Source of the DNA: a virus
Lineage: Duplodnaviria; Heunggongvirae; Uroviricota; Caudoviricetes
IMG/VR virus record: IMGVR_UViG_2531839479_000007
DNA: 32,745 nucleotides
Reading direction: 5' to 3' (one strand)
Shown piece after piece: positions 1-29,359 of the stretch. The notes under the pieces were generated by a model, which had not been told where the DNA came from, did not search any database, and saw only the letters and a list, made by a program, of their open reading frames with translations. Both the position numbers and the translations under genes were made by a program. Every line of letters starts with the position of its first letter. The first letter of the stretch is position 1.

Positions 1-852
1 CTAGGATATCTTTCCATGACATTCTTTGAAGCGTTTTCCACTCCCGCAATGACATAAGGCATTTCTTGACATAGATTGTGGTGGACTCAAGTCAATTTCG
101 CTAAGCATCGAAAGTAATTCCTCTGCTGCAATTGCTTCTCCAATCATAACTTGAGTTAGACTTCTCATATGAATCAATAATTCTGCTACAATTTGAGATT
201 CTACAAAACTTTTAGTTTCTCCAGCGTCATTAGTAGCGGTATAGGTGACGCCACTCATATTTTCAGACAAAGCTTCAATAGCTGATTGATGGTATTGACT
301 GATAGGAGCATGCTTACTCACTACAATACCTATTACTTTATTATCTGAAGCTTTTAAAAGAGCTCCACCAGAATTTCCTGAGTTAAATGCCCCATTTACC
401 ACTAGATGTTTTTTTTGTCCCTTGGCGGTTTGGTATGAGTTAAATCCTGCTAGATAACCAACGGATAGTAACGGTGCAGGACCGTTGTATCCTAATGGGT
501 ATCCCCAAGTTGTTACTGATTCACCAACTTTAAGATCATTATCCTTAACAATACTTAGCCCACCAGTCTGGGTAATGGCAGGTCTCAGCACAGCTAAATC
601 GCGATCAGAATCTATCCATTTTTGAGAAATTGGAATCTTCTGTCCATAAGCTGAAATTGCGAAAATCTGATTTGTAGAGCATCCAGTGATAACATGCTCG
701 TTCGTTACTATTAACCCATTATCTATTAAAAAACCAGATCCTTTCGAGCCTGTCGCAGGACATATAATCATATAAACAGAATTTACTGATGAGCGTCCAA
801 CTTCACCCGTAGCGTCTAAAGTCCATTGAGTAGATATGGGGATATTGTTCAA
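1..852 (-). CDS. Trypsin-like (S1 family) serine protease with C-terminal SEC-C metal-binding motif; flanking gene outside the prophage
   Basis: 283-aa ORF; His/Asp/Ser triad contexts TNEHV, DLAVL, GNSGGAL; C-terminal CHCGSGKRFKECHGK matches the SEC-C motif; TTG start at 850-852 with AAGGAG 8 nt upstream; TAG stop at 1-3; visibly AT-rich. Confidence 0.6.
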   Translation of the reverse strand: MNNIPISTQWTLDATGEVGRSSVNSVYMIICPATGSKGSGFLIDNGLIVTNEHVITGCSTNQIFAISAYGQKIPISQKWIDSDRDLAVLRPAITQTGGLSIVKDNDLKVGESVTTWGYPLGYNGPAPLLSVGYLAGFNSYQTAKGQKKHLVVNGAFNSGNSGGALLKASDNKVIGIVVSKHAPISQYHQSAIEALSENMSGVTYTATNDAGETKSFVESQIVAELLIHMRSLTQVMIGEAIAAEELLSMLSEIDLSPPQSMSRNALCHCGSGKRFKECHGKIS

Positions 853-12697: not shown

Positions 12698-12715
12698 TGT
12701 CATTACAGACCAACA
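12698..12715 (-). promoter_or_regulatory. Candidate Ogr-dependent late promoter element upstream of V (TGT-N12-ACA dyad)
   Basis: TGTCATTACAGACCAACA: TGT at 12698-12700 and ACA at 12713-12715 separated by 12 nt, about 90 bp upstream of the V start. Confidence 0.4.
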
Positions 12716-13003
12716 CCTCCTTTGAGGGGCTGATTGAAACCTAGTCGAACATCCAGCGTTGTTCCTTAGCTGCGTGACAATGTTTTTGAACACAGTATTG
12801 GCCAAAGCTGAGCCGAAATTGGCATCCTACGAAAAATTCGATTTCTCTAGCCAGTAGTTCGATTTTAGATTTTGTATTACCTTACTCAATGAGTTTTTGG
12901 TCAGATTTTTAACACACTCAACGCCAAAAGCGGGCGCTCACGTAAACATATCCATTTTTGCTTGAGACATATTTACTATTACAGTGAGCAGTTTATCTGT
13001 TTT

Positions 13004-13032
13004 CCAAAAGAGGCAGAGGTATATTTCTGCCT
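13004..13032 (-). terminator. Candidate terminator downstream of the moron gene
   Basis: AGGCAGA / 8-nt loop / TCTGCCT hairpin at 13011-13032 followed on the minus strand by CTTTTGG; starts 14 nt below the moron stop. Confidence 0.35.
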
Positions 13033-13045
13033 AGCGCATGTTGCC

Positions 13046-14032
13046 TTATGGATTTGACTTCCCTGAAGTCTCTTTTTTTATTTCAAATTTCCCACCCTTG
13101 AACATGATATTCGAATCTTTGATTCCATACAAAAGCATTTCATAAGGATGGTTAATTTTTTGTTCTTTTGTAGCGATACTGGAATTCATCAATTGCAACA
13201 AAGCCACATGATGTTCACTCGCCCCTAACTCTACCATTTTGGTAGCCATGTTGCTTATCTGTTCTCGTTTTAAAAAATCTTCCCGGAGAGAAAGTAACGT
13301 TAAACTTCGTGCGTTACAAAACTTTATCATGTAAACAACAAACGCACCTAACCCAATATAGGAAAACGATAATGCTAAATAAATAGACGGTGTGGTTATT
13401 ATGTTTTGCCCAAATATAAGAAAACCCAGCAGGCCAAAAAAATAAAAAACATTCACCAAAATAAACATGTTACTCATCAGAGCCTTTGTACTTCGAGTTG
13501 CATCATATTCTTTCTCCAGATGCTCCAAAAATGATGATATTTTTATTAAATTTAACTTTTCAATTGTTTCCTTCTCTAAAATCTTGAATTGCTCACTCTC
13601 TCTAATTAATTTTTTGGTAGTGTCCTCCACTGTATCATGCAATGATTCAGTGATCGCCTCTTCAATTTTATTTTCAGAAAACACGCTTGTTAAAGCGTAA
13701 TTGGCTAATTCCTTTTGTCTTTTCTCGATTAAACTTTCGACATTTTCTCTGTACGCATCAAAATATTTTTGACCACTCTCGTTTAGCAATATTTTACGAA
13801 TATGAAATTTTATTTTCTCATCTGCCATTGGTTGGCTTTCAGTGTTACCATTCTTCTTTGTGTTATTATCTTTAGTTTCCGCATTATACCTGTCCTTGCC
13901 TGAATCAAGTAAGTTCCGTGAAATGAATTTCACCACAGGACCACGCAGAATAGCTATAGCTATTGCCATTGCAAGAATGAATGGTGAAGCATCAATAAAT
14001 GATCGCGCAAATACGAAAGAGATTTCACTCAT
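13046..14032 (-). CDS. AT-rich moron: predicted membrane protein of unknown function (N-terminal TM helix, charged central region, two further TM helices, soluble C-terminal domain)
   Basis: Start set at ATG 14030-14032 (AGGGA 8 nt upstream); hydrophobic stretches SPFILAMAIAIAIL, MFILVNVFYFFGLLGFLIFG, IYLALSFSYIGLGAFVVYMIKF; sharp drop in GC relative to V and S on either side. Confidence 0.6.
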   Translation of the reverse strand: MSEISFVFARSFIDASPFILAMAIAIAILRGPVVKFISRNLLDSGKDRYNAETKDNNTKKNGNTESQPMADEKIKFHIRKILLNESGQKYFDAYRENVESLIEKRQKELANYALTSVFSENKIEEAITESLHDTVEDTTKKLIRESEQFKILEKETIEKLNLIKISSFLEHLEKEYDATRSTKALMSNMFILVNVFYFFGLLGFLIFGQNIITTPSIYLALSFSYIGLGAFVVYMIKFCNARSLTLLSLREDFLKREQISNMATKMVELGASEHHVALLQLMNSSIATKEQKINHPYEMLLYGIKDSNIMFKGGKFEIKKETSGKSNP

Positions 14033-14075
14033 AAACATTTCCCTATCTAAAATCAAAGAGTTTACTTTTACCCAT

Positions 14076-14104
14076 ATTTTCTACTGACTGAACCAGTTTG
14101 ACAA
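14076..14104 (-). promoter_or_regulatory. Candidate sigma70-type promoter for the moron gene
   Basis: Minus strand TTGTCA (plus 14099-14104), 17-nt spacer, GAAAAT (plus 14076-14081), about 45 nt upstream of the ATG; weak -10, so tentative. Confidence 0.25.
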
Positions 14105-14345
14105 GAGAGATAAGCATCTTTAATATCGATTTTGCCCATTAGGCATGAAAATAAAAAATACCACATGAAATCAATATCATACAATGACCACGCGTTGACC
14201 TCATCCATAACCAATAAATTATCTGATCATGAAATTCTTGATATGCATTGCAGAATTCGATTTCCACCATTTCGCTTTTAGATGTTCATCAAATATCAAC
14301 ACCCCACTATCAGTAGTTGACAGATCAACTCGTAGCTAATTCAAA

Positions 14346-14786
14346 TCAGATGAGTAAAAAAAGATCCTCAATTAATTGTATATCGTTCCTGCTAAATCCG
14401 AGTAACTGGCGTTCTGGATATTGCACGTCCTGAGCATGAGGGTTTGGCCGGTCTTTGAGTCCGAACTGATGAATCTGCGCGATGCGTTGCACCTTGCCAG
14501 TGAATTCCACCACGGCAGTATCATTGCGGCCACTGGCTTTCATGTAGCGACTGGTTCGCAACTTCTGAAACATCGCCCGTTTAATGCGTCCTTTTTTTGC
14601 CCTCAGCGGCTGGCGTTTTCGTGCCTGATACGGCGTGCCATCAGGTGCTTTTTGCTGTTTGATTCGTTGCTGTTGCGATCTGCGCAGTTCCTTCGCAATC
14701 TCAGCGGCCAGCTTGCGCCGACCCACCGGTGATATTGCCGCAATCAGTCCCGCAAGTTTGTCATCAAAAGGTTTAAATTCATTCAT
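14346..14786 (-). CDS. S: Tail completion protein S
   Basis: 146 aa, gpS-like; ATG at 14784-14786 overlapping the R stop. Confidence 0.9.
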   Translation of the reverse strand: MNEFKPFDDKLAGLIAAISPVGRRKLAAEIAKELRRSQQQRIKQQKAPDGTPYQARKRQPLRAKKGRIKRAMFQKLRTSRYMKASGRNDTAVVEFTGKVQRIAQIHQFGLKDRPNPHAQDVQYPERQLLGFSRNDIQLIEDLFLLI

Positions 14787-20184: not shown

Positions 20185-21954
20185 ATGACCATTTCGACTG
20201 ACCTCTCCCTTTTGCATGACCCGCGACGACAGGCGCGGCTGTTGTTCTGGCAGGGATTTTCCGTACCACAAATCGCCGACACACTGCAGGTAAAGCGCCC
20301 GACCGTGCAGAGCTGGAAACAGCGCGACGGGTGGGAGGAAACCGCCCCGCTTAATCGCGTGGAAACGACGCTCGAGGCGCGCCTGATCCAGCTTTATGCA
20401 AAGCCTGACCTGACGCCGCATGACTTCAAGGTCGCTGATTTTCTGTCACGCCAGATGGAGCGATTCGCACGCATCAACCGCTACGGCCAGACCGGTAATG
20501 AAGTGGATTTAAACCCCAACATTGCGAGCCGCAATAAAGGGGATCGCAAAAAGCCGAAACGCAATTATTTCAGCGACGAGGCCATCGAAAAGCTGGAAGA
20601 GATTTTCTTCGATCAGTCCTTTGAGTATCAGCTCAACTGGCACAAGGCCGGTATCGCGCACCGTATTCGCCACATCCTCAAATCACGCCAGATTGGCGCG
20701 ACGTTCTACTTTGCGCGTGAGTCCCTCCTGCGTGCGCTTAAGACCGGGCAAAACCAGATATTTTTGTCAGCCAGTAAGACGCAGGCTTACGTGTTCCGAA
20801 AGTACATCATCGCCTTTGCGCGCATGGTCGACGTCGACCTGTCAGGAGACCCGATTGTCATCGGCAACAACGGCGCAGAGCTGATTTTTCTCGGGACAAA
20901 CTCAAACACTGCGCAGAGCCATAACGGCGACCTGTATGTCGATGAAATCTTCTGGATCCCCAACTTTCAGAAGCTGCGCAAAGTCGCCTCGGGGATGGCG
21001 TCGCAGTCCCACCTGCGCACCACCTACTTTTCAACACCCTCAACGCTGGCACATGGCGCGTATCCGTTCTGGTCAGGTGAACTGTTTAACCGGGGACGCA
21101 GCAACGCGAGCGAGCGCGTCGACATCGATATCAGCCACAAAGCGCTCGCCGGTGGCGTGCTGTGCCCGGACGGCCAGTGGCGGCAGATTGTCACCATCGA
21201 GGACGCACTCGCCGGGGGATGCACCCTGTTTAATCTGGATCAGCTGAAACAGGAAAACAGCGCCGACGATTTTCGCAACCTCTTCATGTGCGAGTTTGTT
21301 GACGATAAAGCGTCGGTATTCCCGTTCGAGGAGCTACAGCGCTGCATGGTCGATGCGATGGAAGAATGGGAGGACTTTGCGCCGTTCTCTGACCGTCCGT
21401 TTAACTGGCGCCCGGTCTGGATTGGCTATGACCCGTCGCACACCGGCGACAGCGCTGGCTGTGCGGTACTGGCTCCACCACTGGTTCCCGGTGGCAAGTT
21501 CCGCATCCTTGAGCGTCACCAGTGGAAAGGGATGGATTTTGCGACGCAGGCCGAGGCTATCCGCGAGCTGACCGGGAAATATTGCGTCGAGTACATCGGC
21601 ATCGATGCGACCGGCATCGGCCAGGGGGTTTACCAGCTCGTGCGCTCCTTCTTCCCGGCGGCGCGTGCCATTCGCTACACGCCGGAAATGAAAACTGCGA
21701 TGGTGCTGAAAGCGAAAGACACCATCCGTCGCGGATGTCTGGAATATGACGCCGGTGCGACCGACATCACACAGTCATTTATGGCTATCCGTAAAGCCAT
21801 GACCAGCAGCGGGCGCAGCTCCACCTATGAGGCCAGCCGCAGCGAAGAGGCCAGCCACGCGGATATTGCGTGGGCGACCATGCACGCCCTGTTAAACGAA
21901 CCGCTTTCCGCCGGTAGCGGCATGCAATCAACCTCAATTCTGGATATTAACTAA
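20185..21954 (+). CDS. P: Terminase large (ATPase) subunit P
   Basis: Start set at MTISTDLSLLHDPRR (ATG 20185, GAGG 6 nt upstream); 589 aa, gpP-like. Confidence 0.9.
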   Translation: MTISTDLSLLHDPRRQARLLFWQGFSVPQIADTLQVKRPTVQSWKQRDGWEETAPLNRVETTLEARLIQLYAKPDLTPHDFKVADFLSRQMERFARINRYGQTGNEVDLNPNIASRNKGDRKKPKRNYFSDEAIEKLEEIFFDQSFEYQLNWHKAGIAHRIRHILKSRQIGATFYFARESLLRALKTGQNQIFLSASKTQAYVFRKYIIAFARMVDVDLSGDPIVIGNNGAELIFLGTNSNTAQSHNGDLYVDEIFWIPNFQKLRKVASGMASQSHLRTTYFSTPSTLAHGAYPFWSGELFNRGRSNASERVDIDISHKALAGGVLCPDGQWRQIVTIEDALAGGCTLFNLDQLKQENSADDFRNLFMCEFVDDKASVFPFEELQRCMVDAMEEWEDFAPFSDRPFNWRPVWIGYDPSHTGDSAGCAVLAPPLVPGGKFRILERHQWKGMDFATQAEAIRELTGKYCVEYIGIDATGIGQGVYQLVRSFFPAARAIRYTPEMKTAMVLKAKDTIRRGCLEYDAGATDITQSFMAIRKAMTSSGRSSTYEASRSEEASHADIAWATMHALLNEPLSAGSGMQSTSILDIN

Positions 21955-21955
21955 G

Positions 21956-22963
21956 ATGAAAAAACGACAAAAGAAACCCGCCAACATGACCGCCAGCACA
22001 CCGCAAAAAATGGAGGCGTTCACCTTTGGTGTGCCTTCCCCGGTTCTGGATCGCCGCGACATTCTCGACTACGTAGAGTGTATCAATAACGGGAAATGGT
22101 ACGAGCCGCCGGTCAACTTCTCGGGGCTGGCAAAAAGCCTGCGCGCCTCCGTTCATCACAGCTCGCCGATTTACGTGAAACGTAACATTCTGGCGAGCAC
22201 CTACATTCCGCACCCGTTGCTGTCACGTCAGGACTTCAGCCGCCTGGTGCTCGATTATCTGGTCTTTGCCAACGGCTATCTTGAGAAGCGCATGAGCGTC
22301 ACCGGCCAGCTCTTAAAACTGGAAACCTCACCGGCTAAATACACCCGCCGGGGTGTCGAAGATGGCGTTTACTGGTACGTGTCGAACTACACCCAGCCGC
22401 ACCCGTTCGCACCCGATTCCGTTTTCCATCTGCTTGAGCCCGATATCAATCAGGAGTTGTACGGGATGCCGGAATACCTGAGCGCACTTAATTCTGCCTG
22501 GCTGAATGAGTCCGCTACGCTGTTTCGCCGCAAGTATTACCAGAACGGCGCGCACGCGGGGTACATCATGTACGTCACCGACGCCGCGCAAAGCAGTACC
22601 GACGTCGAGTCGCTCCGCAACGCGATGCGTGACTCGAAAGGACTCGGGAATTTCAAAAACTTGTTTTTCTACGCGCCCAACGGCAAACCGGATGGCATCA
22701 AGATTGTGCCGTTGAGTGAAGTCGCCACGAAAGATGATTTTTTCAATATCAAAAAGGTTAGTGCAGAAGATTTGTTGAGTGCTCATAGGGTACCACCACA
22801 AATGATGGGAATTATGCCTAACAATGTTGGCGGTTTTGGTGATGTTGTAAAAGCTGCACAAGTGTTTGTCCGAAATGAGTTAACTCCTTTACAGGAACGG
22901 TTCAAAGAACTAAACAACTGGTTAGAAATGGAAGTTATAAGATTTAAAAAATATTCACTTTGA
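21956..22963 (+). CDS. Q: Portal protein Q; last ~75 codons are AT-rich (mosaic 3' end)
   Basis: 335 aa, gpQ-like; ATG at 21956 one base after the P stop; composition drops from about 22735 onward. Confidence 0.9.
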   Translation: MKKRQKKPANMTASTPQKMEAFTFGVPSPVLDRRDILDYVECINNGKWYEPPVNFSGLAKSLRASVHHSSPIYVKRNILASTYIPHPLLSRQDFSRLVLDYLVFANGYLEKRMSVTGQLLKLETSPAKYTRRGVEDGVYWYVSNYTQPHPFAPDSVFHLLEPDINQELYGMPEYLSALNSAWLNESATLFRRKYYQNGAHAGYIMYVTDAAQSSTDVESLRNAMRDSKGLGNFKNLFFYAPNGKPDGIKIVPLSEVATKDDFFNIKKVSAEDLLSAHRVPPQMMGIMPNNVGGFGDVVKAAQVFVRNELTPLQERFKELNNWLEMEVIRFKKYSL

Positions 22964-23026
22964 TTTTCAAAATAAACATCTCAACATTATATTCAGCCCT
23001 GTAACTCAAGAACCACAGATAATAAC

Positions 23027-23055
23027 ATCACAGCCCACTTTATCGGGGCTGTGAT
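23027..23055. terminator. Perfect 10-bp inverted repeat between convergent Q and the cargo operon (candidate bidirectional terminator or structured element)
   Basis: ATCACAGCCC / 9-nt loop / GGGCTGTGAT; 64 nt after the Q stop and 4 nt before the cargo stop codon; no clear U-tract on either strand. Confidence 0.35.
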
Positions 23056-23058
23056 AAT

Positions 23059-24171
23059 TTAACCAACCCTTGCTTTTTTATATGGACCACAACTCCAACT
23101 AAAGAAATTCTTACCTAACTTATACCATTTATCAGAAAGCACTGGTGTTAGGTGAGGATTATATTTTTTTAAACTTCCCTTTTGTATATATTTCAATGTA
23201 TTGCTGAGCAAATTCTCTCCAAAACCATCATAACTTACACAAGCAGCGTTGCAGCTACAACGTTTTGATTCGATATACTCACAATCATATTTTATATCAA
23301 GCTTCTTTAATATCGGACGCCAATATGCACCATGTTTTCGATCGAGTTCAAGGGCTGTTTTAAAATCAAAACCTTTTTTATGGTCAATATAAAATTTTAC
23401 TGATTCATCTACGGAGCAAAGATGCTTAAAGAAAATGAGAGATTTTTCTTTTTGTTGCAATTGACTTTGACTTCTTAATACATCTTCAATTGTCGATAAA
23501 GGAACTAGAGATTCTATTTCATGTACATCTAAAATCTCCACGAAACCTGAGCGAGTAATTTGTGAGCCCAAAAAATGTGAGCAAGTACCTCCGAATGGGG
23601 CTCCAGGATGTTTTTTGTCATTATCCACAATACAAAAAACTATCTCATTATTTTGAATTGCACGCTCGAATATATCCTTAGTACTGCCCCCACCGCCATT
23701 TAGAGCGATAAAACCCATTTCGCAGCGAGATAAGTTAATACCTTCGGCATAATGAGCCGCTATAACCTTAAAAAAATCAGAATCCAAAGGATTTTCACAT
23801 ACTATTTTCGTTTTTTGCAATTGTGCCGAGTCATTAAAATACAATGGACCACAAACAAATTTAAAAGATTCACCGATCTGAACCCATTTAAATGATTTAT
23901 CACTAATATTAAAGTCGACAGATACATAAAATGAGACCTGATCCAAGATAGCATAGTACTCTGTTAGACCCGACAAAGCCTCTTGCGCGTAACTTTTTGA
24001 TGAAAGGCTATAAAGCCCGCTTTGATCATTGATAATAGTTTTAAAAAAAACCCTTGCCCCTATAACCAAGTGTTTTTGTTCAGCGAATGCCCGAAGTATA
24101 TTTTCAACCGCTATGGCAAATGAGTTATTTAGCACCTTCTCAGGTGTCGCATTTTCGATATTAATCAACAT
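23059..24171 (-). CDS. Cargo gene 2: 370-aa partner protein of the ATPase, unknown function (possible Toprim-like E...DxD core; Cys-rich C-terminus)
   Basis: ATG at 24169-24171 only 2 nt after the ATPase TAG stop; AT-rich; ...RCEMGFIALNGGGGS...IVFCIVDNDKK... could be Toprim-like; C-terminal CEYIESKRCSCNAAC cluster. Confidence 0.6.
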   Translation of the reverse strand: MLINIENATPEKVLNNSFAIAVENILRAFAEQKHLVIGARVFFKTIINDQSGLYSLSSKSYAQEALSGLTEYYAILDQVSFYVSVDFNISDKSFKWVQIGESFKFVCGPLYFNDSAQLQKTKIVCENPLDSDFFKVIAAHYAEGINLSRCEMGFIALNGGGGSTKDIFERAIQNNEIVFCIVDNDKKHPGAPFGGTCSHFLGSQITRSGFVEILDVHEIESLVPLSTIEDVLRSQSQLQQKEKSLIFFKHLCSVDESVKFYIDHKKGFDFKTALELDRKHGAYWRPILKKLDIKYDCEYIESKRCSCNAACVSYDGFGENLLSNTLKYIQKGSLKKYNPHLTPVLSDKWYKLGKNFFSWSCGPYKKARVG

Positions 24172-24173
24172 AA

Positions 24174-25730
24174 CTACTTACCCGAGAAAAAGCCAACCGG
24201 CCAATTTTTTAGGAAACCATTCTCGTCAAAATAAGATTTCTTAACTATAGTCTGCTGCTTATCATCTTTTTCAAATACCAGTATTGAAATATCATCCTGT
24301 GAAAGACTTTCATTTTCCTCAATATATTCACCAAGTGCTTCAATCATGGTCTGGCTATGTGTCTCAAAAATTATCTTCAAATCTACATTATTTTCTTTTG
24401 CTTTAGTTACTACTTTTGCAAAAATACTTGCTAAATTATGCTGATATGACGGATGTAAATGCAATTCTGGCTGCTCAATGATAAATGTTATAGGTTTTCT
24501 AACCGTGGTAGCACGACGTTCTGTCTCAAGCCAAATGGCTGTAACTATCGGCAAAACCTGAGAATAACCAAACCCCATATCACTAACATTATAGTTCTCA
24601 CTATTTTCACCGGTGTTTATTAAAATTGCAAAGTGAGAGCCACTTTGTTCAACCTTGATAATGAAATCAAAATTTAACTTTGTCCAATCTTCAAATTTTG
24701 ATTTATCAGCCGGTCTTAATGAATTCAAAAGCATTGCAAGATTGGAACCAGTATGATCTATCTCATTAACCTGTAAATCTTGAAAACGATAAAATCTTTC
24801 TGATGTAGCACGCAGTGGAGCTATGTACTTTACATTTCTGAATGAATCTGACAAGGATGTATTTATTATATCTATAAGATTATTAATATTCCATCCAATT
24901 ATAAATGGATATAACTCATTCATTATTTCATCATGTTGAAATTCAAAGTTTCTACTAAAAACTTTTTGTTCCTTAAATAGAAAAGCAACTAATTTACTAG
25001 CGTACGCTTTGGGTATAAAGCCAATTCTTTTGAATGCCTCTGTCACTTGATTTATATCAGATTTAGTATGGAAATATTTCTTTATATATTTCGCCGCTGA
25101 ATCAATAAATGACAATTCTAACGCCCTGTCATGCCTAGAATGTCTCAAATAGAATGATGTGCTTGGAGGAGGACTGTCTTCCTTACCCTTCAAAATTAGA
25201 TTTGGTATGAACTGCCCAAGATTTTTAGCTATTATCCCATCACGCTCTATTGTTTTATCATCTGATTCAATGAGTAATTTAACATTACTACTCTCATCCA
25301 TTGAAATAAATATTGTTAAATCAGCCAATATAAGCTTAATCGTTTTCGTTTTTGTTTTTTTATCTTTAGAGTAAACAGTTAACTCTGCTTCAATATCTGT
25401 TGGTTGCTTTGCTAAATCAGTAGAACGATAATATGTATATCTTTGTGAAACCTCTGGCGGAATTGAGAGTGAAAAACTAAACGTAATTTCTTTTTTTTCA
25501 GAGTTTCGGGAAAGTACATCTGTAAAATCGCCAAAATCCACATATCTCCCATACCATAGTATTGGGCCAGTAGTATTTTCTTCTACAGATTGACGAAGTA
25601 AAGGAAATGTGCGCAATAGGGAACTTTTACCACTGCTGTTCTTACCAACAAATACTGTAATTGGTTTTAAATCAATAAACGTTTTGTTGACAAAGCTCCT
25701 GAAGTTTTGAAGACCTATACCCTTAATCAT
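24174..25730 (-). CDS. Cargo gene 1: ABC/OLD-family (AAA_15/AAA_21-like) ATPase without a C-terminal Toprim domain
   Basis: Start set at MIKGIGLQNFRSF (ATG 25728-25730, GGAG 6 nt upstream); Walker A GKNSSGKSS, Walker B/D-loop ITFIIEQPELHLHP, H-loop IIFETHS; ORF-track start at 25802 is TTG inside the cos-like sequence. Confidence 0.75.
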   Translation of the reverse strand: MIKGIGLQNFRSFVNKTFIDLKPITVFVGKNSSGKSSLLRTFPLLRQSVEENTTGPILWYGRYVDFGDFTDVLSRNSEKKEITFSFSLSIPPEVSQRYTYYRSTDLAKQPTDIEAELTVYSKDKKTKTKTIKLILADLTIFISMDESSNVKLLIESDDKTIERDGIIAKNLGQFIPNLILKGKEDSPPPSTSFYLRHSRHDRALELSFIDSAAKYIKKYFHTKSDINQVTEAFKRIGFIPKAYASKLVAFLFKEQKVFSRNFEFQHDEIMNELYPFIIGWNINNLIDIINTSLSDSFRNVKYIAPLRATSERFYRFQDLQVNEIDHTGSNLAMLLNSLRPADKSKFEDWTKLNFDFIIKVEQSGSHFAILINTGENSENYNVSDMGFGYSQVLPIVTAIWLETERRATTVRKPITFIIEQPELHLHPSYQHNLASIFAKVVTKAKENNVDLKIIFETHSQTMIEALGEYIEENESLSQDDISILVFEKDDKQQTIVKKSYFDENGFLKNWPVGFFSGK

Positions 25731-25801
25731 TCCTAGCTCCATTAGTTCAATAAAATCAATCGATTTTGAGACAATCTTAATATCTTTGACAGGCGCGCGC
25801 A

Positions 25802-25820
25802 ATGCTTACCCCGCCTCGCC
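25802..25820. other. cos-like site (19-nt cohesive-end sequence)
   Basis: Minus strand reads GGCGAGGCGGGGTAAGCAT, 17/19 identical to the P2 cohesive end as I recall it (GGCGAGGCGGGGAAAGCAC). Confidence 0.55.
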
Positions 25821-26102
25821 TGCCCGCTTTATGGGTCGTTTTTAATGCAGTTGCATGACCACTCTGGATCCGCGCCTGCTCTGGCGGCGCGCGGCCAGAA
25901 CAGGCATCCCCAACGTATGCAAAAAAATGCACCTGTTGCATGCACGGCTAAAAAACCGGGAAATTGTGGGAAAATTGCATAATAAAACCGACTTTAATCG
26001 TGCCGGTTGGGGGTGGTCTCTACGGTGCAGGCTAACGTCTCGCGGGGCTCGTTGCTCAACACCGCTGGCACTGAAAACAAGTTTCAGCACCGGCGGCGTT
26101 TG

Positions 26103-26342
26103 CTATGGTCGACGCGGTGGTGGCTTTGCCATATTTGGTGGCCGAAACGCCTCAATTTTCGGATTGCTGATATCGCTGTATTTGCGGTGATTATCCCGGA
26201 CGACACCGGCACACCCGACCAGTTCGTCAGGGGTCAGATTCTCGTTAATCATAATTTGTTGCAGGCGATGTACGACGGCCATCAGCTTAATGTTTTGCGT
26301 TGAATGTATCGGCGGCACTGGCATCATTCGCATATGACTCAT
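26103..26342 (-). CDS. Small hypothetical protein (79 aa) coupled to the DUF3850-like gene
   Basis: ATG at 26340-26342 overlaps the upstream TGA (ATGA); MSHMRMMPVPPIHSTQNIKLMAVVHRLQQ...; no recognisable family; ORF-track start at 26351 is GTG. Confidence 0.35.
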   Translation of the reverse strand: MSHMRMMPVPPIHSTQNIKLMAVVHRLQQIMINENLTPDELVGCAGVVRDNHRKYSDISNPKIEAFRPPNMAKPPPRRP

Positions 26343-26803
26343 TTTAACCACCCATTTTTTTTAGCATCTGCGACCAACTTGTCGGAATATTGCCAGACAC
26401 CATCATCAGCGATGTAAGCCCTACCAGAAACGCTGTTAAGTGTTTCATATCTAATAGCCAGCCCTAACGGGTGTAGAATTTCGTGATTAACTCTGAAAAC
26501 AAGCCCCTTCTCGCTTAACTCTTTCCAGTTCATTAGGGACATACCGCACTGGACATCTGGCATCATTAACTGAAAACTCAGCATCACATAATTTTCCGCC
26601 CATTCAGATAAATCCGTAACGTTTGTCACCCTCACTGATACACGTTTCCCGGTATATCTGTTTACCGGTTCCCATTCATGCAACCCGAGAATATCACCGC
26701 TAGAATAATCGCGGTCATTGAGACGAAATTCAGCACGTTTTTCCTGAGATATCACAGAGTTAAAATACTCAGGTGCAATTTTTAACTCATGGATTTTGCT
26801 CAT
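26339..26803 (-). CDS. DUF3850-like (ASCH/PUA-like) domain protein with ~75-aa C-terminal extension; accessory gene coupled to A
   Basis: Start set at MSKIHELKIAPEYFNSVISQEKRAEFRLNDRDYSSGDILGLHEW (ATG 26801-26803 overlapping the A stop, TAATG); motif resembles DUF3850 as I recall it; lower GC than A. Confidence 0.55.
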   Translation of the reverse strand: MSKIHELKIAPEYFNSVISQEKRAEFRLNDRDYSSGDILGLHEWEPVNRYTGKRVSVRVTNVTDLSEWAENYVMLSFQLMMPDVQCGMSLMNWKELSEKGLVFRVNHEILHPLGLAIRYETLNSVSGRAYIADDGVWQYSDKLVADAKKNGWLK

Positions 26804-29094
26804 TAATTCTGCTCCTCTTGAATTGAGAATCCCGGCCACTCATCAGCAGCCGCGTATTTGATTTTTTTATCGCCATAAATCACCGTTGCCCCACGCGCCA
26901 GCGCTTCGAGCGCCCACCGTTCCGGGGTAATGCCCTCCTGAGCCAAATCGAAACGAATTTTCGCCACGCGATCCCTTTCTGGTTTTGTCATCCTGGCTGA
27001 TGGAGCTTGCTCGCTCGTTTTGAGTGGCGCATTGCTTCTTTGCTGGCGATTATTGCGAGGTGCGCCAGCTTTTAACGCGCCGTTAAGAACCTTCATGACG
27101 TCTGGCTCATTCCAGCCGATAACCCCGGCCTCAATCAGATTTAACACCGCTGCGGCTTGCTCAGACGGTGTAGGTGTCATAACTGGATCGCCACCGTCGG
27201 CAAGCTTTCCACAGTTATTGACAGGACTCCGAGGCGCGGCAGAGCCGCTTTTTAAGGTCAAAGGCTCAACGGCCAAAACCTTTGGAACTATGCGCCATTC
27301 CGCTGTACGGGTTACATGTACGCGGCTCACCCCAAGATGAGGGGCATAAATACCGACCACTTTCTCGATATCCTCCTCGTATTCGTTTACCTCATCCGTC
27401 ACCTTACGGGCGACCCTGACCGCCTGAGCATCACGCGGCATGTTTGCCCCACCCTGCGCGCTGATGTACAGGTCAAATTCCCCCTCATCTGCAGCAGCCC
27501 GGACGGCCTCGACACGGTCGTCAAACTCGCTGGCGATACTCACCCCGCGCGGCAGCTTACGCAGTTCGCGGTAAGCGCCCATTGTCGGGAGGCCAATCGG
27601 TTTAAACTGAGGGATACGCCATGTAGACGCCCATGCGGTTACGGCTGCGGCCGTATCTTTCAGAGATTTGCCGGTATCGTGATCGAGCTGACCGTCAAGC
27701 GCGTAGCCGTCGATATTTTTGGCAATGTATTTGGCGATATAACCCGCCGCGCCCCCCTGATTAAGGTGACGCGACTCAAAGCGCTGTTTTGCCGCGCCCT
27801 TTTCGTGTCCGTCCTCTTTGAGGGCATAACGACGCATAATTTCGTTGATAGCTTTACGCTGACTGAGTTTGCAAAAAAGCATCATATGCCAGTGTGGCGT
27901 GCCGTCGTGGTGCGGCTCGACAACGCGCATCCCATACACTTCCAAATCGTTATCTTTGAAAGCGGTACGCATCAGGCTCCAGATTCGGCACAGATAGCGC
28001 TGGCCGTTTTTAGGGGTGAATGCGGTTTCGTTCCAGCCGTGATTGAGCTGCACCGTTTTGCTGTCACCTTTGCCGACCTGTCGGGTCGGGTGATACTTCG
28101 ACGGCGTGGTCAGCGTGATAAACATTCCCACATCACCAACGCTGGCCGCATAGCGTTCAATTCCGGCAATGGTGTTCATCAGCTCCATACGGCGTATTTC
28201 AGGGTTTGAAATACTCCCCATGACTTTACTGATGAGGTCGATACGTTCGCCGGTAACTTTGTTTTCCAGCTCACAGGATTTCAGGTATTCGAGATTAGCC
28301 AGCCGGCGCGAGTGAACCTCGCGGATCGCCATTTTGCTGGCGTAAGGTGAACGGTCTTTGTTGACTTCACCGGCAGCGATAAGCAGCGCCTCGCGCCAGC
28401 GCATACGCTGCGCCTTGAGCTGGTTAACCCACCAATCATCTTTTATCAGACGGGAAATAGCGGAAAACGCCATGCGGATCGTCATCTGACCCTTACGGTA
28501 TTTTTTCCAGTAGAGCGGGGTTAAGTTGAACGCGCGTGCAACACCAGCCACCTGACCATATATGTGCACCTGCGCCTCATCGGTGAAAAGGGTCTCTTTA
28601 CCGCCGAATGCCTCAGCCCATTCGTCGCTGAGTTCCTCGTATTTACGCCAGAGCTGCGCGGCAATTCTGGCCGCAAATTTTTTCAGCTCTTTGTCATTCA
28701 TATCAGGCAAGCGCGCATATTCGTCACGCTCAGACAAGAAACCAATCGACGCAGATTCATTCATCCCGCACAGCTCGTTAACGCGCTCAAGACGCGGCAA
28801 CAGCTTCCGCTCAAAGGTGTTTTTCAGGAAATAGAGCGCCCCGGGCGGGCTCTTTGTGCGACGAATGAAGTTATAACGGGAAGTAAACAACGTCTTAAGA
28901 AAGAAAGGCAGGCGGTCAATCCGGTATAAAACACCTTGCACCTGACGGAATTCGGCACGTGTAAGGGGTCTGTCACGGCCAATGGCAGCGCGGGGAGCAT
29001 TCCAGGGATAAGCACCAACGAAAGTATCGCCGGTGCGCTTAGATATTGGCAGGGCTAGCGAGGGGGCAATACGCCCCCGAGTCTCAACGGCCAT
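26803..29094 (-). CDS. A: Replication initiation protein A (rolling-circle nickase)
   Basis: Start set at MAVETRGRIAPSL (ATG 29092-29094); 763 aa; extensive identity to P2 gpA as I recall it, including ...VVEPHHDGTPHWHMMLFC... Confidence 0.9.
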   Translation of the reverse strand: MAVETRGRIAPSLALPISKRTGDTFVGAYPWNAPRAAIGRDRPLTRAEFRQVQGVLYRIDRLPFFLKTLFTSRYNFIRRTKSPPGALYFLKNTFERKLLPRLERVNELCGMNESASIGFLSERDEYARLPDMNDKELKKFAARIAAQLWRKYEELSDEWAEAFGGKETLFTDEAQVHIYGQVAGVARAFNLTPLYWKKYRKGQMTIRMAFSAISRLIKDDWWVNQLKAQRMRWREALLIAAGEVNKDRSPYASKMAIREVHSRRLANLEYLKSCELENKVTGERIDLISKVMGSISNPEIRRMELMNTIAGIERYAASVGDVGMFITLTTPSKYHPTRQVGKGDSKTVQLNHGWNETAFTPKNGQRYLCRIWSLMRTAFKDNDLEVYGMRVVEPHHDGTPHWHMMLFCKLSQRKAINEIMRRYALKEDGHEKGAAKQRFESRHLNQGGAAGYIAKYIAKNIDGYALDGQLDHDTGKSLKDTAAAVTAWASTWRIPQFKPIGLPTMGAYRELRKLPRGVSIASEFDDRVEAVRAAADEGEFDLYISAQGGANMPRDAQAVRVARKVTDEVNEYEEDIEKVVGIYAPHLGVSRVHVTRTAEWRIVPKVLAVEPLTLKSGSAAPRSPVNNCGKLADGGDPVMTPTPSEQAAAVLNLIEAGVIGWNEPDVMKVLNGALKAGAPRNNRQQRSNAPLKTSEQAPSARMTKPERDRVAKIRFDLAQEGITPERWALEALARGATVIYGDKKIKYAAADEWPGFSIQEEQN

Positions 29095-29359
29095 CAGCAC
29101 AAAACGCGGTCTGACATTGCAGTCCCAACTGCTCGACCTGCTCACCCAACGCCGCAAAACTATCAGCACCGCCATTTAAAAGGTCATGTAGCACCAGACC
29201 AGAAATCAGTTTTTGAATCGTCGGGTAATCCCCGACAGTATCAAGCCATTCGCTACCTTTATTTTTTCCAGCAGTCGCCACTTTCTTTTCCTGCAAAATG
29301 AACTGGTAGCGATCGCTTGTAACTACATACTGATGATTTATCTCGATACGGATACTCAT
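29084..29359 (-). CDS. Hypothetical early protein (91 aa), P2 orf82/83-like position
   Basis: ATG at 29357-29359 with AAGGAG 6 nt upstream; TGA at 29084-29086 just before the A start. Confidence 0.6.
   Translation of the reverse strand: MSIRIEINHQYVVTSDRYQFILQEKKVATAGKNKGSEWLDTVGDYPTIQKLISGLVLHDLLNGGADSFAALGEQVEQLGLQCQTAFCADGR

Follow-up and report, generated by a model that had tools for sequence, protein, structure and literature searches.

The 32,745-nucleotide (nt) stretch IMGVR_UViG_2531839479_000007 of the IMG/VR database, called the window below and always meant in its full length, is a complete P2-family (186-like) prophage of Escherichia coli whose portal gene, Q, very probably bears the scar of a recombination event. 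The left genome end of this prophage appears to have been replaced through homologous exchange with another P2-family phage, with a crossover inside Q and a right boundary at the core of the cohesive-end site (cos). The exchanged cassette would measure ~3.03 kilobases (kb), from 22759 to ~25791, and would comprise the last 68 portal codons, a spacer and a two-gene candidate anti-phage system. The product would be an in-frame chimeric portal, 186-type over residues 1-267 and P2-type over residues 268-335. An earlier annotation made from the letters of the window, hereafter the original prediction, had recognized the junction within Q and proposed homologous exchange with a different, AT-richer P2-like phage; the identification of cos as the other boundary of the exchanged block is an addition to that proposal, which had only the Q-side junction. 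The portal gene and the adjoining spacer are divided as follows.

21956-22963, plus strand: portal gene Q (186 gene W homologue), an intact open reading frame (ORF) of 335 codons, apparently chimeric
21956-22732, plus strand: backbone part of Q, of the 186/ENT4/A15 type, with a GC content at third codon positions (GC3) of about 0.70 and 87-89% nt identity to ENT4
22733-22758, plus strand: putative crossover interval, codons 260-268 (DDFFNIKKV), 26 nt identical between the window and A15
22759-22963, plus strand: probable donor-derived 3' end of Q, codons 268-335 plus stop, with a guanine-plus-cytosine (GC) content of 0.37, GC3 0.27 and the P2-type C-terminus HRVPPQMMGIMPNNVGGFGD...
22964-23058, unstranded: spacer between the convergent Q and cargo genes, part of the presumed transferred block, with a GC-rich hairpin at ~23020-23045

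The break is apparent in base composition. Measured in 200-nt windows, GC content falls from 0.575 at 22500-22699 to 0.33 at 22800-22999 and stays at 0.27-0.40 onward to ~25700. Codon usage in Q displays the same significant discontinuity: the maximum-likelihood change-point for GC3 is located after codon 258 (nt 22730), with values of 0.717 to its left and 0.273 to its right, and the observed likelihood ratio was matched by none of the codon-order permutations (0/5000; p<2e-4). When the split is set at codon 267/268, the difference is equally clear (Fisher p=6.5e-11). To the right of the change-point, Q has the GC3 of the cargo genes (0.27 and 0.25), and the corresponding Q codons have GC3 values of 0.69 in A15, 0.72 in ENT4 and 0.83 in phage 186. 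The reading frame continues unbroken to the stop codon at 22961-22963 and encodes a C-terminus homologous to portal C-termini. These results bear out the drop that the original prediction had described from ~22735 to the Q stop, with frame and portal-like C-terminus preserved, and the change-point at 22730 coincides with its start coordinate. Its estimate of ~75 AT-rich codons holds for composition and has to be shortened for origin, since the heterologous tract amounts to 68 codons from 22759. All relatives are likewise AT-rich over the first nine of these codons (KDDFFNIKK, 22730-22756), since the amino acids concerned are encoded by AT-rich triplets; the compositional change-point consequently lies nine codons ahead of the true junction. 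An antisense ORF of 177 amino acids (22328-22861, minus strand, TTG start) overlaps Q across the junction and is probably spurious; it was dropped as a source of the composition shift, as it spans both sides of a break that replacement explains.

Comparison with relatives places the junction to within a few codons. The nearest E. coli relative without this cargo, A15, is 93% identical to the window through genes P and Q, and megablast similarity between the two ends at window nt 22758. Base by base, the window last differs from A15 ahead of the break at 22732, and the first donor-type base is 22759, so that the crossover would lie within 22733-22758, inside the conserved DDFFNIKKV codons, which are AT-rich in every phage whatever the GC content of its genome. 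Divergence from A15 is 7.1% upstream and 37.6% from 22759 on, and the alignment stays in frame. At the protein level, the 267 N-terminal residues are 96% identical to A15 (93% in nt), against 75% for the last 68 residues (62% in nt). The C-terminal motif changes from HRVPFQLMGGKPENIGSMGD, carried by 186, ENT4 and A15, to the HRVPPQMMGIMPNNVGGFGD of P2-type portals, or in plain form from HRVPFQLMGG... in the replaced type to HRVPPQMMG... in the window. The nearest relatives of the two parts of the gene differ accordingly: the 774 nt of the Q 5' part are 88.8% identical to Enterobacter phage ENT4 and ~82% to the 186/PSP3 group, whereas the 234 nt of the 3' part match nothing above 75%, the top matches being P2-like phages of Yersinia enterocolitica, Klebsiella and Mannheimia. 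Outside the EC11 lineage described below, the best portal-gene match to 22759-22963 reaches 71-79% in nt and 85-87% in amino acids, with a C-terminus of the same length. The crossover that the original prediction had expected within the conserved 3' end of Q can thus be assigned to 22733-22758.

The same cassette, at ~98% identity, is present in four E. coli genomes (EC11, HYM1, T-HYM1 and UTAK-6) as well as in some IMG/VR and metagenome contigs, on a backbone that is ~92% identical to that of the window overall and ~86% in the 5' part of Q. Per 100 nt, identity between window and EC11 spans 77% to 99%, the backbone being mosaic. Within Q, a change-point between the two is found at 22748, with 14.6% divergence up to 22747 and 1.4% from 22748 on; the 3' tract is 98.5-99% identical in nt, upstream Q only 85%, and the 68 C-terminal portal residues differ between the lineages at 1 position, with the ORF intact. 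The spacer (22964-23058) likewise has 98% identity to that of the EC11 lineage, and it bears no relationship to A15, ENT4 or 186. The left junction of EC11 lies further upstream. Compared with its own nearest relative, S42, EC11 diverges by 4.9% before nt 22603 and by 24.2% after it, and over 22601-22747 it has a GC3 of only 0.37, the window, S42 and A15 having 0.63-0.67. One cassette is therefore found on two backbones, with left junctions nested ~150 base pairs (bp) apart and a common right edge, and this is the pattern predicted by homologous exchange with variable crossover points. If the immediate donor of the window resembled EC11, the window crossover narrows to 22748-22758.

A further chimera is carried by S42 and by the IMG/VR contig L021. 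Their Q genes combine a 186/ENT4-like 5' part (~90% amino acid identity to the window) with a P2-type C-terminus from codon ~268, and their Q 3' tract is 78% identical to that of the window. The Q-side cargo (L021 359-2107; L107 6994-8742) encodes a DUF262/GmrSD_N protein and a weak HEPN (RiboL-PSP) protein. To judge from these sequences, S42/L021 represents an independent switch of C-terminus type at the same patch of Q, associated with different cargo. The relatives sharing the junction that the original prediction had suggested looking for are thus found in part: EC11 shares the cassette and has its junction upstream at ~22603, and S42/L021 shares the patch and bears another cassette.

At its other end the foreign stretch, which covers everything between 22759 and ~25791, reaches to within 10 bp of cos. 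The elements of this boundary are listed here.

25792-25801, unstranded: right edge of the AT-rich block, with the box GCGCGCA (25795-25801); homology to A15, ENT4 and 186 returns here
25802-25820, unstranded: 19-nt cohesive-end sequence of cos, ATGCTTACCCCGCCTCGCC, matching the annotated 186 cos ATGCTTTCCCCGCCACGCC in position and sequence
25821-25860, unstranded: right arm of the cos core, TGCCCGCTT...TTTTAATGCAG, conserved in all compared loci

In phage 186 itself, cos is annotated ~180 bp downstream of the portal gene. As the block is bounded by Q and cos, the replaced DNA corresponds to the terminal ~3 kb of the packaged linear genome. Across ~55 P2-family IMG/VR loci, with or without cargo, GCGCGCA is the only conserved Q-side sequence left of the cut, and the opposite side, toward the replication gene A, carries a longer conserved arm, which corresponds to the 55-bp cos core of Ziermann and Calendar (1990), as cited in PMC5694545. 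The right boundary would accordingly fall in the conserved cos core, at most 10 bp from the cohesive-end cut, and would need only 7 bp of conservation on the Q side. The 19-mer of the window, ATGCTTACCCCGCCTCGCC, has TTA at positions 5-7, a variant unseen in the ~55 other P2-family loci, where TAT or TTT is found.

The cos side may have been resolved by an ordinary crossover in the core or by joining of cohesive ends, and we lean toward the former. In a cohesive-end-assisted exchange, the cos ends of two P2-family genomes would be annealed and ligated, or ends cut by terminase would serve as substrates, and one crossover in Q would complete the event; we consider this possible, though clearly the less likely course. 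It would account for the exact coincidence of the cassette with the terminal segment of the packaged genome. It would also account for the place where lineage identity stops, inside the 19-nt overhang: window and EC11 lineages agree as far as position 5 of the 19-mer, first differ at positions 6-7 and are 8-14% diverged over the next 200 bp. Likewise, two EC11 sublineages (L005/L007/L105 and L006/L059/L010) are 99.7% identical from Q through the cargo and 95.6% identical right of cos, with 19-mers differing at position 15, a contrast that these sequences mark as a second recombination breakpoint at cos. All cargo-bearing loci examined are, moreover, variable right up to the 7-bp box beside the cut, and the model has been stated as speculation by Rousset et al. 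(2022; PMC9122126). On the other hand, no other non-coding DNA shared by these phages is as conserved as the cos core, so that ordinary crossovers are expected there as well, and the boundaries fit joining at the cut site and crossover in the flanking core equally well. It also counts against cohesive-end assistance that P2 packages from monomeric circles and recombines poorly. A broader proposal, in which the cos ends would form one arm of a cassette exchange swapping the terminal 1-3 kb and the portal 3' end would act as a portable homology arm travelling with defence cargo, is offered tentatively.

The homologous exchange put forward by the original prediction is supported by the divergence step, by the discordant halves of Q and by the nested junctions in two lineages. 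It would have taken place during co-residence or co-infection of the two phages, and the resulting chimeric portal is presumably functional, the intact ORF being the sole indication of this.

Several observations weigh against this interpretation. An EC11-like donor would leave 11 bp of shared identity at the window crossover, a length below the usual minimum for RecA-dependent exchange, and mismatch-tolerant exchange or later conversion would therefore be needed. The DDFFNIKKV patch ranks tenth among conserved 24-nt windows of Q in 59 diverse P2-family portal genes and is thus not uniquely favoured. It was rejected as the main run of identity between divergent portal genes, the longest identical runs being located mostly near 22530-22560 and 22140-22170, and its conservation is at best a weak contributing factor to the crossover location. 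The 35 genomes carrying the region at ≥99.9% identity, described below, may be mostly clonal. Finally, no donor phage was found, which leaves the AT-rich parental Q hypothetical.

The donor was sought in phage, genome and metagenome collections. No donor was retrieved from INPHARED phages by blastn with the 234-nt tract of the window and a 361-nt tract of EC11, from IMG/VR by the amino-acid-level degenerate pattern FGDVVKAAQVFVRNE, from GTDB species representatives by an AT-restricted and then an unrestricted pattern, or from Joint Genome Institute (JGI) metagenomes by the AT-restricted pattern. Whatever was retrieved from INPHARED, IMG/VR, GTDB representatives and JGI belonged either to the two E. 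coli lineages or to GC-rich relatives of ≤79% nt identity. Querying proteins with the 68-residue C-terminus brought up only fragments shorter than 120 amino acids, the portal of the window itself not being among them. Of the parental pair, a recipient-like phage is thus at hand in A15 (93%), and the donor is absent from the five collections searched. The donor would have been a low-GC P2-like phage, the sole evidence being the AT-rich synonymous sites of a conserved portal segment. The AT-richer P2-like partner of the original prediction accordingly stands as far as the AT-rich, P2-type 3' end of Q is concerned, and the phage behind it is deduced, with no candidate above 80% nt identity. The composition of the cargo is uninformative on the donor, since this gene family is AT-rich in every host examined (GC 29-34% in E. 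coli, Pectobacterium, Providencia and Klebsiella aerogenes).

The polarity of the event could also be read in reverse, the AT-rich cassette and Q 3' end being the older residents onto which successive exchanges brought a 186-like backbone. The mosaic backbone, with its wide range of identity to EC11, would suit this order of events. It is nevertheless the same recombination seen from the other parent, of which the minor one gives 3 kb of ~31 kb, and the junctions at 22603 and 22748-22758 are explained more simply as two entries or re-entries of a small block; we judge the reversed order unlikely.

An illegitimate event, in which the cargo would have entered by non-homologous recombination or on a mobile element, truncated Q and supplied a new end to the frame by chance, is highly improbable at the Q-side junction. 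It draws some plausibility from the presence of hotspot cargo in unrelated contexts such as chromosomal islands and P4-like satellites, and Moura de Sousa et al. (2026; PMC13586616) name illegitimate recombination as a possible route of exchange with other mobile elements. The new C-terminus is, in opposition to this, a true portal C-terminus, of unchanged length and closely related to those of P2-type portals (85-87% in amino acids). Furthermore, 22700-25830 contains no recombinase ORF, transposase or integrase, and flanking direct or inverted repeats are absent, only chance AT-rich repeats being found there. The homologous C-terminus and the missing repeats refute illegitimate insertion at this junction; such an insertion is possible for an older event that first placed the cargo beside the portal gene of the donor. 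Least probable of all, and refuted by the change-point and discordance analyses, is a change in situ, in which mutation bias or selection (e.g. for silencing or a regulatory element) would have turned the Q 3' end AT-rich without any exchange: it has nothing beyond the composition itself in its favour, and it conflicts with a divergence leaping from 7% to 38% within a few bases, with the change of the protein to another widespread C-terminal type and with the contrast between a tract shared with the EC11 lineage at 98.5% identity and an upstream Q shared at only 85%.

Homologous exchange of a Q-to-cos block seems to have left similar traces elsewhere. Generality was assessed on IMG/VR loci having one shared portal motif and a detectable cos. 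In this sample, 36 loci have a short Q-to-cos interval (150-227 bp) and ~30 have 0.5-3.4 kb, mostly AT-rich, between Q and cos. After dereplication, GC3 over the last 40 portal codons has a median of 0.525 with Q-side cargo versus 0.625 without (Mann-Whitney p=6e-5), and the fall in identity from the 5' to the 3' part of Q, measured against the nearest 5' neighbour, has a median of 0.097 with cargo versus 0.019 without (Mann-Whitney p=4e-6). Portal junctions are therefore a recurrent by-product of Q-side cargo exchange. The onset of the GC3 drop differs by locus, from roughly codon 262 to codon 322, and the largest drop in the sample belongs to the cassette of the window (0.30), which is thus its most extreme case.

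The cargo itself consists of two genes.

23059-24171, minus strand: cargo gene 2, encoding 370 amino acids; no Pfam domain, fold predicted to be that of a TOPRIM-like (OLD/AriB-like) nuclease
24174-25730, minus strand: cargo gene 1, an ABC-type ATPase with AAA_15/AAA_21 and a DUF3696 tail, NsnB/AriA-like; start according to the Prokaryotic Genome Annotation Pipeline (PGAP)

The ATPase matches the Pfam families AAA_15 (4e-27) and DUF3696 (4e-7) and the PADLOC profiles NsnB (the Menshen ATPase; 5e-55), PDC-M55A (8e-46) and AriA (7e-31), and the predicted fold of its partner is nearest to the TOPRIM regions of the OLD family and to AriB. By profile and predicted-fold resemblance, the pair is a candidate split OLD/PARIS-like defence system. 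Its ATPase recalls the AriA of PARIS (AriA/AriB), with NsnB scoring higher; the partner, in contrast to AriB, has no DUF4435 or other Pfam match, and the pair is therefore not PARIS. The NsnB-type ATPase with its DUF3696 tail is also shared with Menshen (NsnABC), a system described in PMC12065111. Here, however, the cassette has two genes, neither of them with DUF262 (no NsnA), and it is therefore not canonical Menshen. The cargo differs from OLD and GajA (OLD/Gabija type) in having the ATPase and the predicted nuclease on separate proteins. Homologues of the cargo with 58-72% amino acid identity occur in chromosomal islands and in Pectobacterium P4-like satellites, where neither the orientation of the pair nor the side of cos on which it lies differs from the window; one such satellite carries a homologue of 23059-25730 (minus strand) at 74% nt identity (L011 4235-7113). 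P2 and P4 are reported in the survey PMC13586616 to share defence genes almost never. A scan of 22900-26400 for promoter and terminator consensus sequences gave none above shuffled expectation; the hairpin of the spacer was not called as a terminator because it has no T-run.

The other side of cos is variable in its own right. In the window, 25842-26839 holds small ORFs and a DUF3850/ASCH protein (26339-26839, minus strand), with a GC content of 0.42-0.57. This set of genes is common to the window, EC11 and S42 lineages, with 93-98% identity to EC11, and A15 has in its place an ATP-dependent nuclease plus a reverse transcriptase. With cargo on the Q side here and on the A side in A15, the hotspot has two independently variable sides. 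The old and tin cargo genes of P2 also lie on the A side of cos.

In the wider context of the cassette, head, lysis, tail, replication and lysogeny genes follow the P2/186 order, and the prophage ends with an integrase adjoining yegR. The gene directly upstream of Q is of backbone type throughout, with 86-93% identity to ENT4 and A15.

20185-21954, plus strand: terminase ATPase subunit gene P (P2 gene P homologue), identified by Pfam Terminase_6N/6C/Terminase_5 and by the PGAP annotation of an identical prophage

Q directly follows the terminase ATPase gene, the placement usual in P2-like phages, and is oriented divergently from the scaffold/capsid genes O/N/M, which lie on the other strand. 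Its protein matches Pfam Phage_portal PF04860 over residues 85-323 (E=2.5e-16, 60.2 bits for a cut-off of 39.1) and 39 complete E. coli genomes have it annotated as phage portal protein; among solved structures, no match to its sequence was found. After Q come the two AT-rich minus-strand genes, cos, a few small ORFs and the replication gene A (26803-29175, minus strand). Of 5,426 complete E. coli genomes, 35 contain the region 22700-25830 at ≥99.9% identity and four more have it at ~97.7%; it is therefore no assembly artefact. WP2-S18-ESBL-07 is among the strains carrying the prophage, and the P/Q region by itself has matches in more than 1,300 E. coli genomes. Two other parts of the window are AT-rich. 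A possible further cargo site is the island at 12700-14500 (GC 0.33-0.38), within the tail/baseplate region; it contains a 328-amino acid ORF (13046-14032, minus strand) that is hypothetical in RefSeq and matches nothing significantly in Pfam or PADLOC. At the left end of the window, past gene D (1-1450, GC 0.36-0.45), there is an ORF running off the window (1-852, minus strand) that encodes a trypsin-like peptidase with a C-terminal SEC-C motif and matches the protease part of PADLOC RT-Protease_XI (7e-21).

P2-like prophages, together with their satellites, are among the main carriers of enterobacterial anti-phage systems, and the locus studied here offers a base-resolved footprint of the movement of one cassette, with one edge in an essential structural gene and the other at the packaging site. 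Cassette swaps could be mapped in thousands of prophages by the scar of the exchange, a discordant portal 3' end rich in AT, and chimeric portal proteins would be a by-product of such exchanges.

Homologous recombination among P2 relatives, leaving mosaic core genes, has reportedly been documented by Nilsson and Haggard-Ljungquist, and the window resembles those cases in its mosaic core genes formed by exchange between related phages. A close precedent is that of Dodd and Egan (1996; Virology 219:115; cited in PMC5694545 and PMC6868368), in which retrons Ec67 and Ec86 replace the cos-to-tW interval of 186-related prophages. The phage group and the interval are the same, foreign DNA extends from portal to cos and cos forms one boundary. 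The title of that study places the left boundary at a transcription terminator that follows the portal gene; in the window, by contrast, it lies inside the portal ORF, the replacement reaching 205 nt into portal coding sequence here and ~360 nt in the EC11 lineage. The locus also corresponds to the cos-proximal hotspot of P2-like phages (Rousset et al. 2022; Moura de Sousa et al. 2026), with a cassette of defence-like cargo between gpQ and gpA beside cos; among the relatives, this position is occupied by a reverse transcriptase and a nuclease in A15 and by the DUF262 and HEPN genes in S42, and ENT4 has none on the Q side. For the movement of such cargo, Rousset et al. (2022) speculate on cos cohesive ends combined with one homologous event, and Moura de Sousa et al. 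(2026) state that the recombination processes 'still need to be elucidated' and that defence systems turn over faster than the phage core. The link that the original prediction had drawn to the shuffling of hotspot cargo fits both the replacements of Dodd and Egan and this speculation. The two papers (PMC9122126, PMC13586616) deal with gene content and turnover, to which the window adds boundaries at base level and the two-sidedness of the site. The locus is thus a well-resolved case of an already known kind of event, not a new kind of system.

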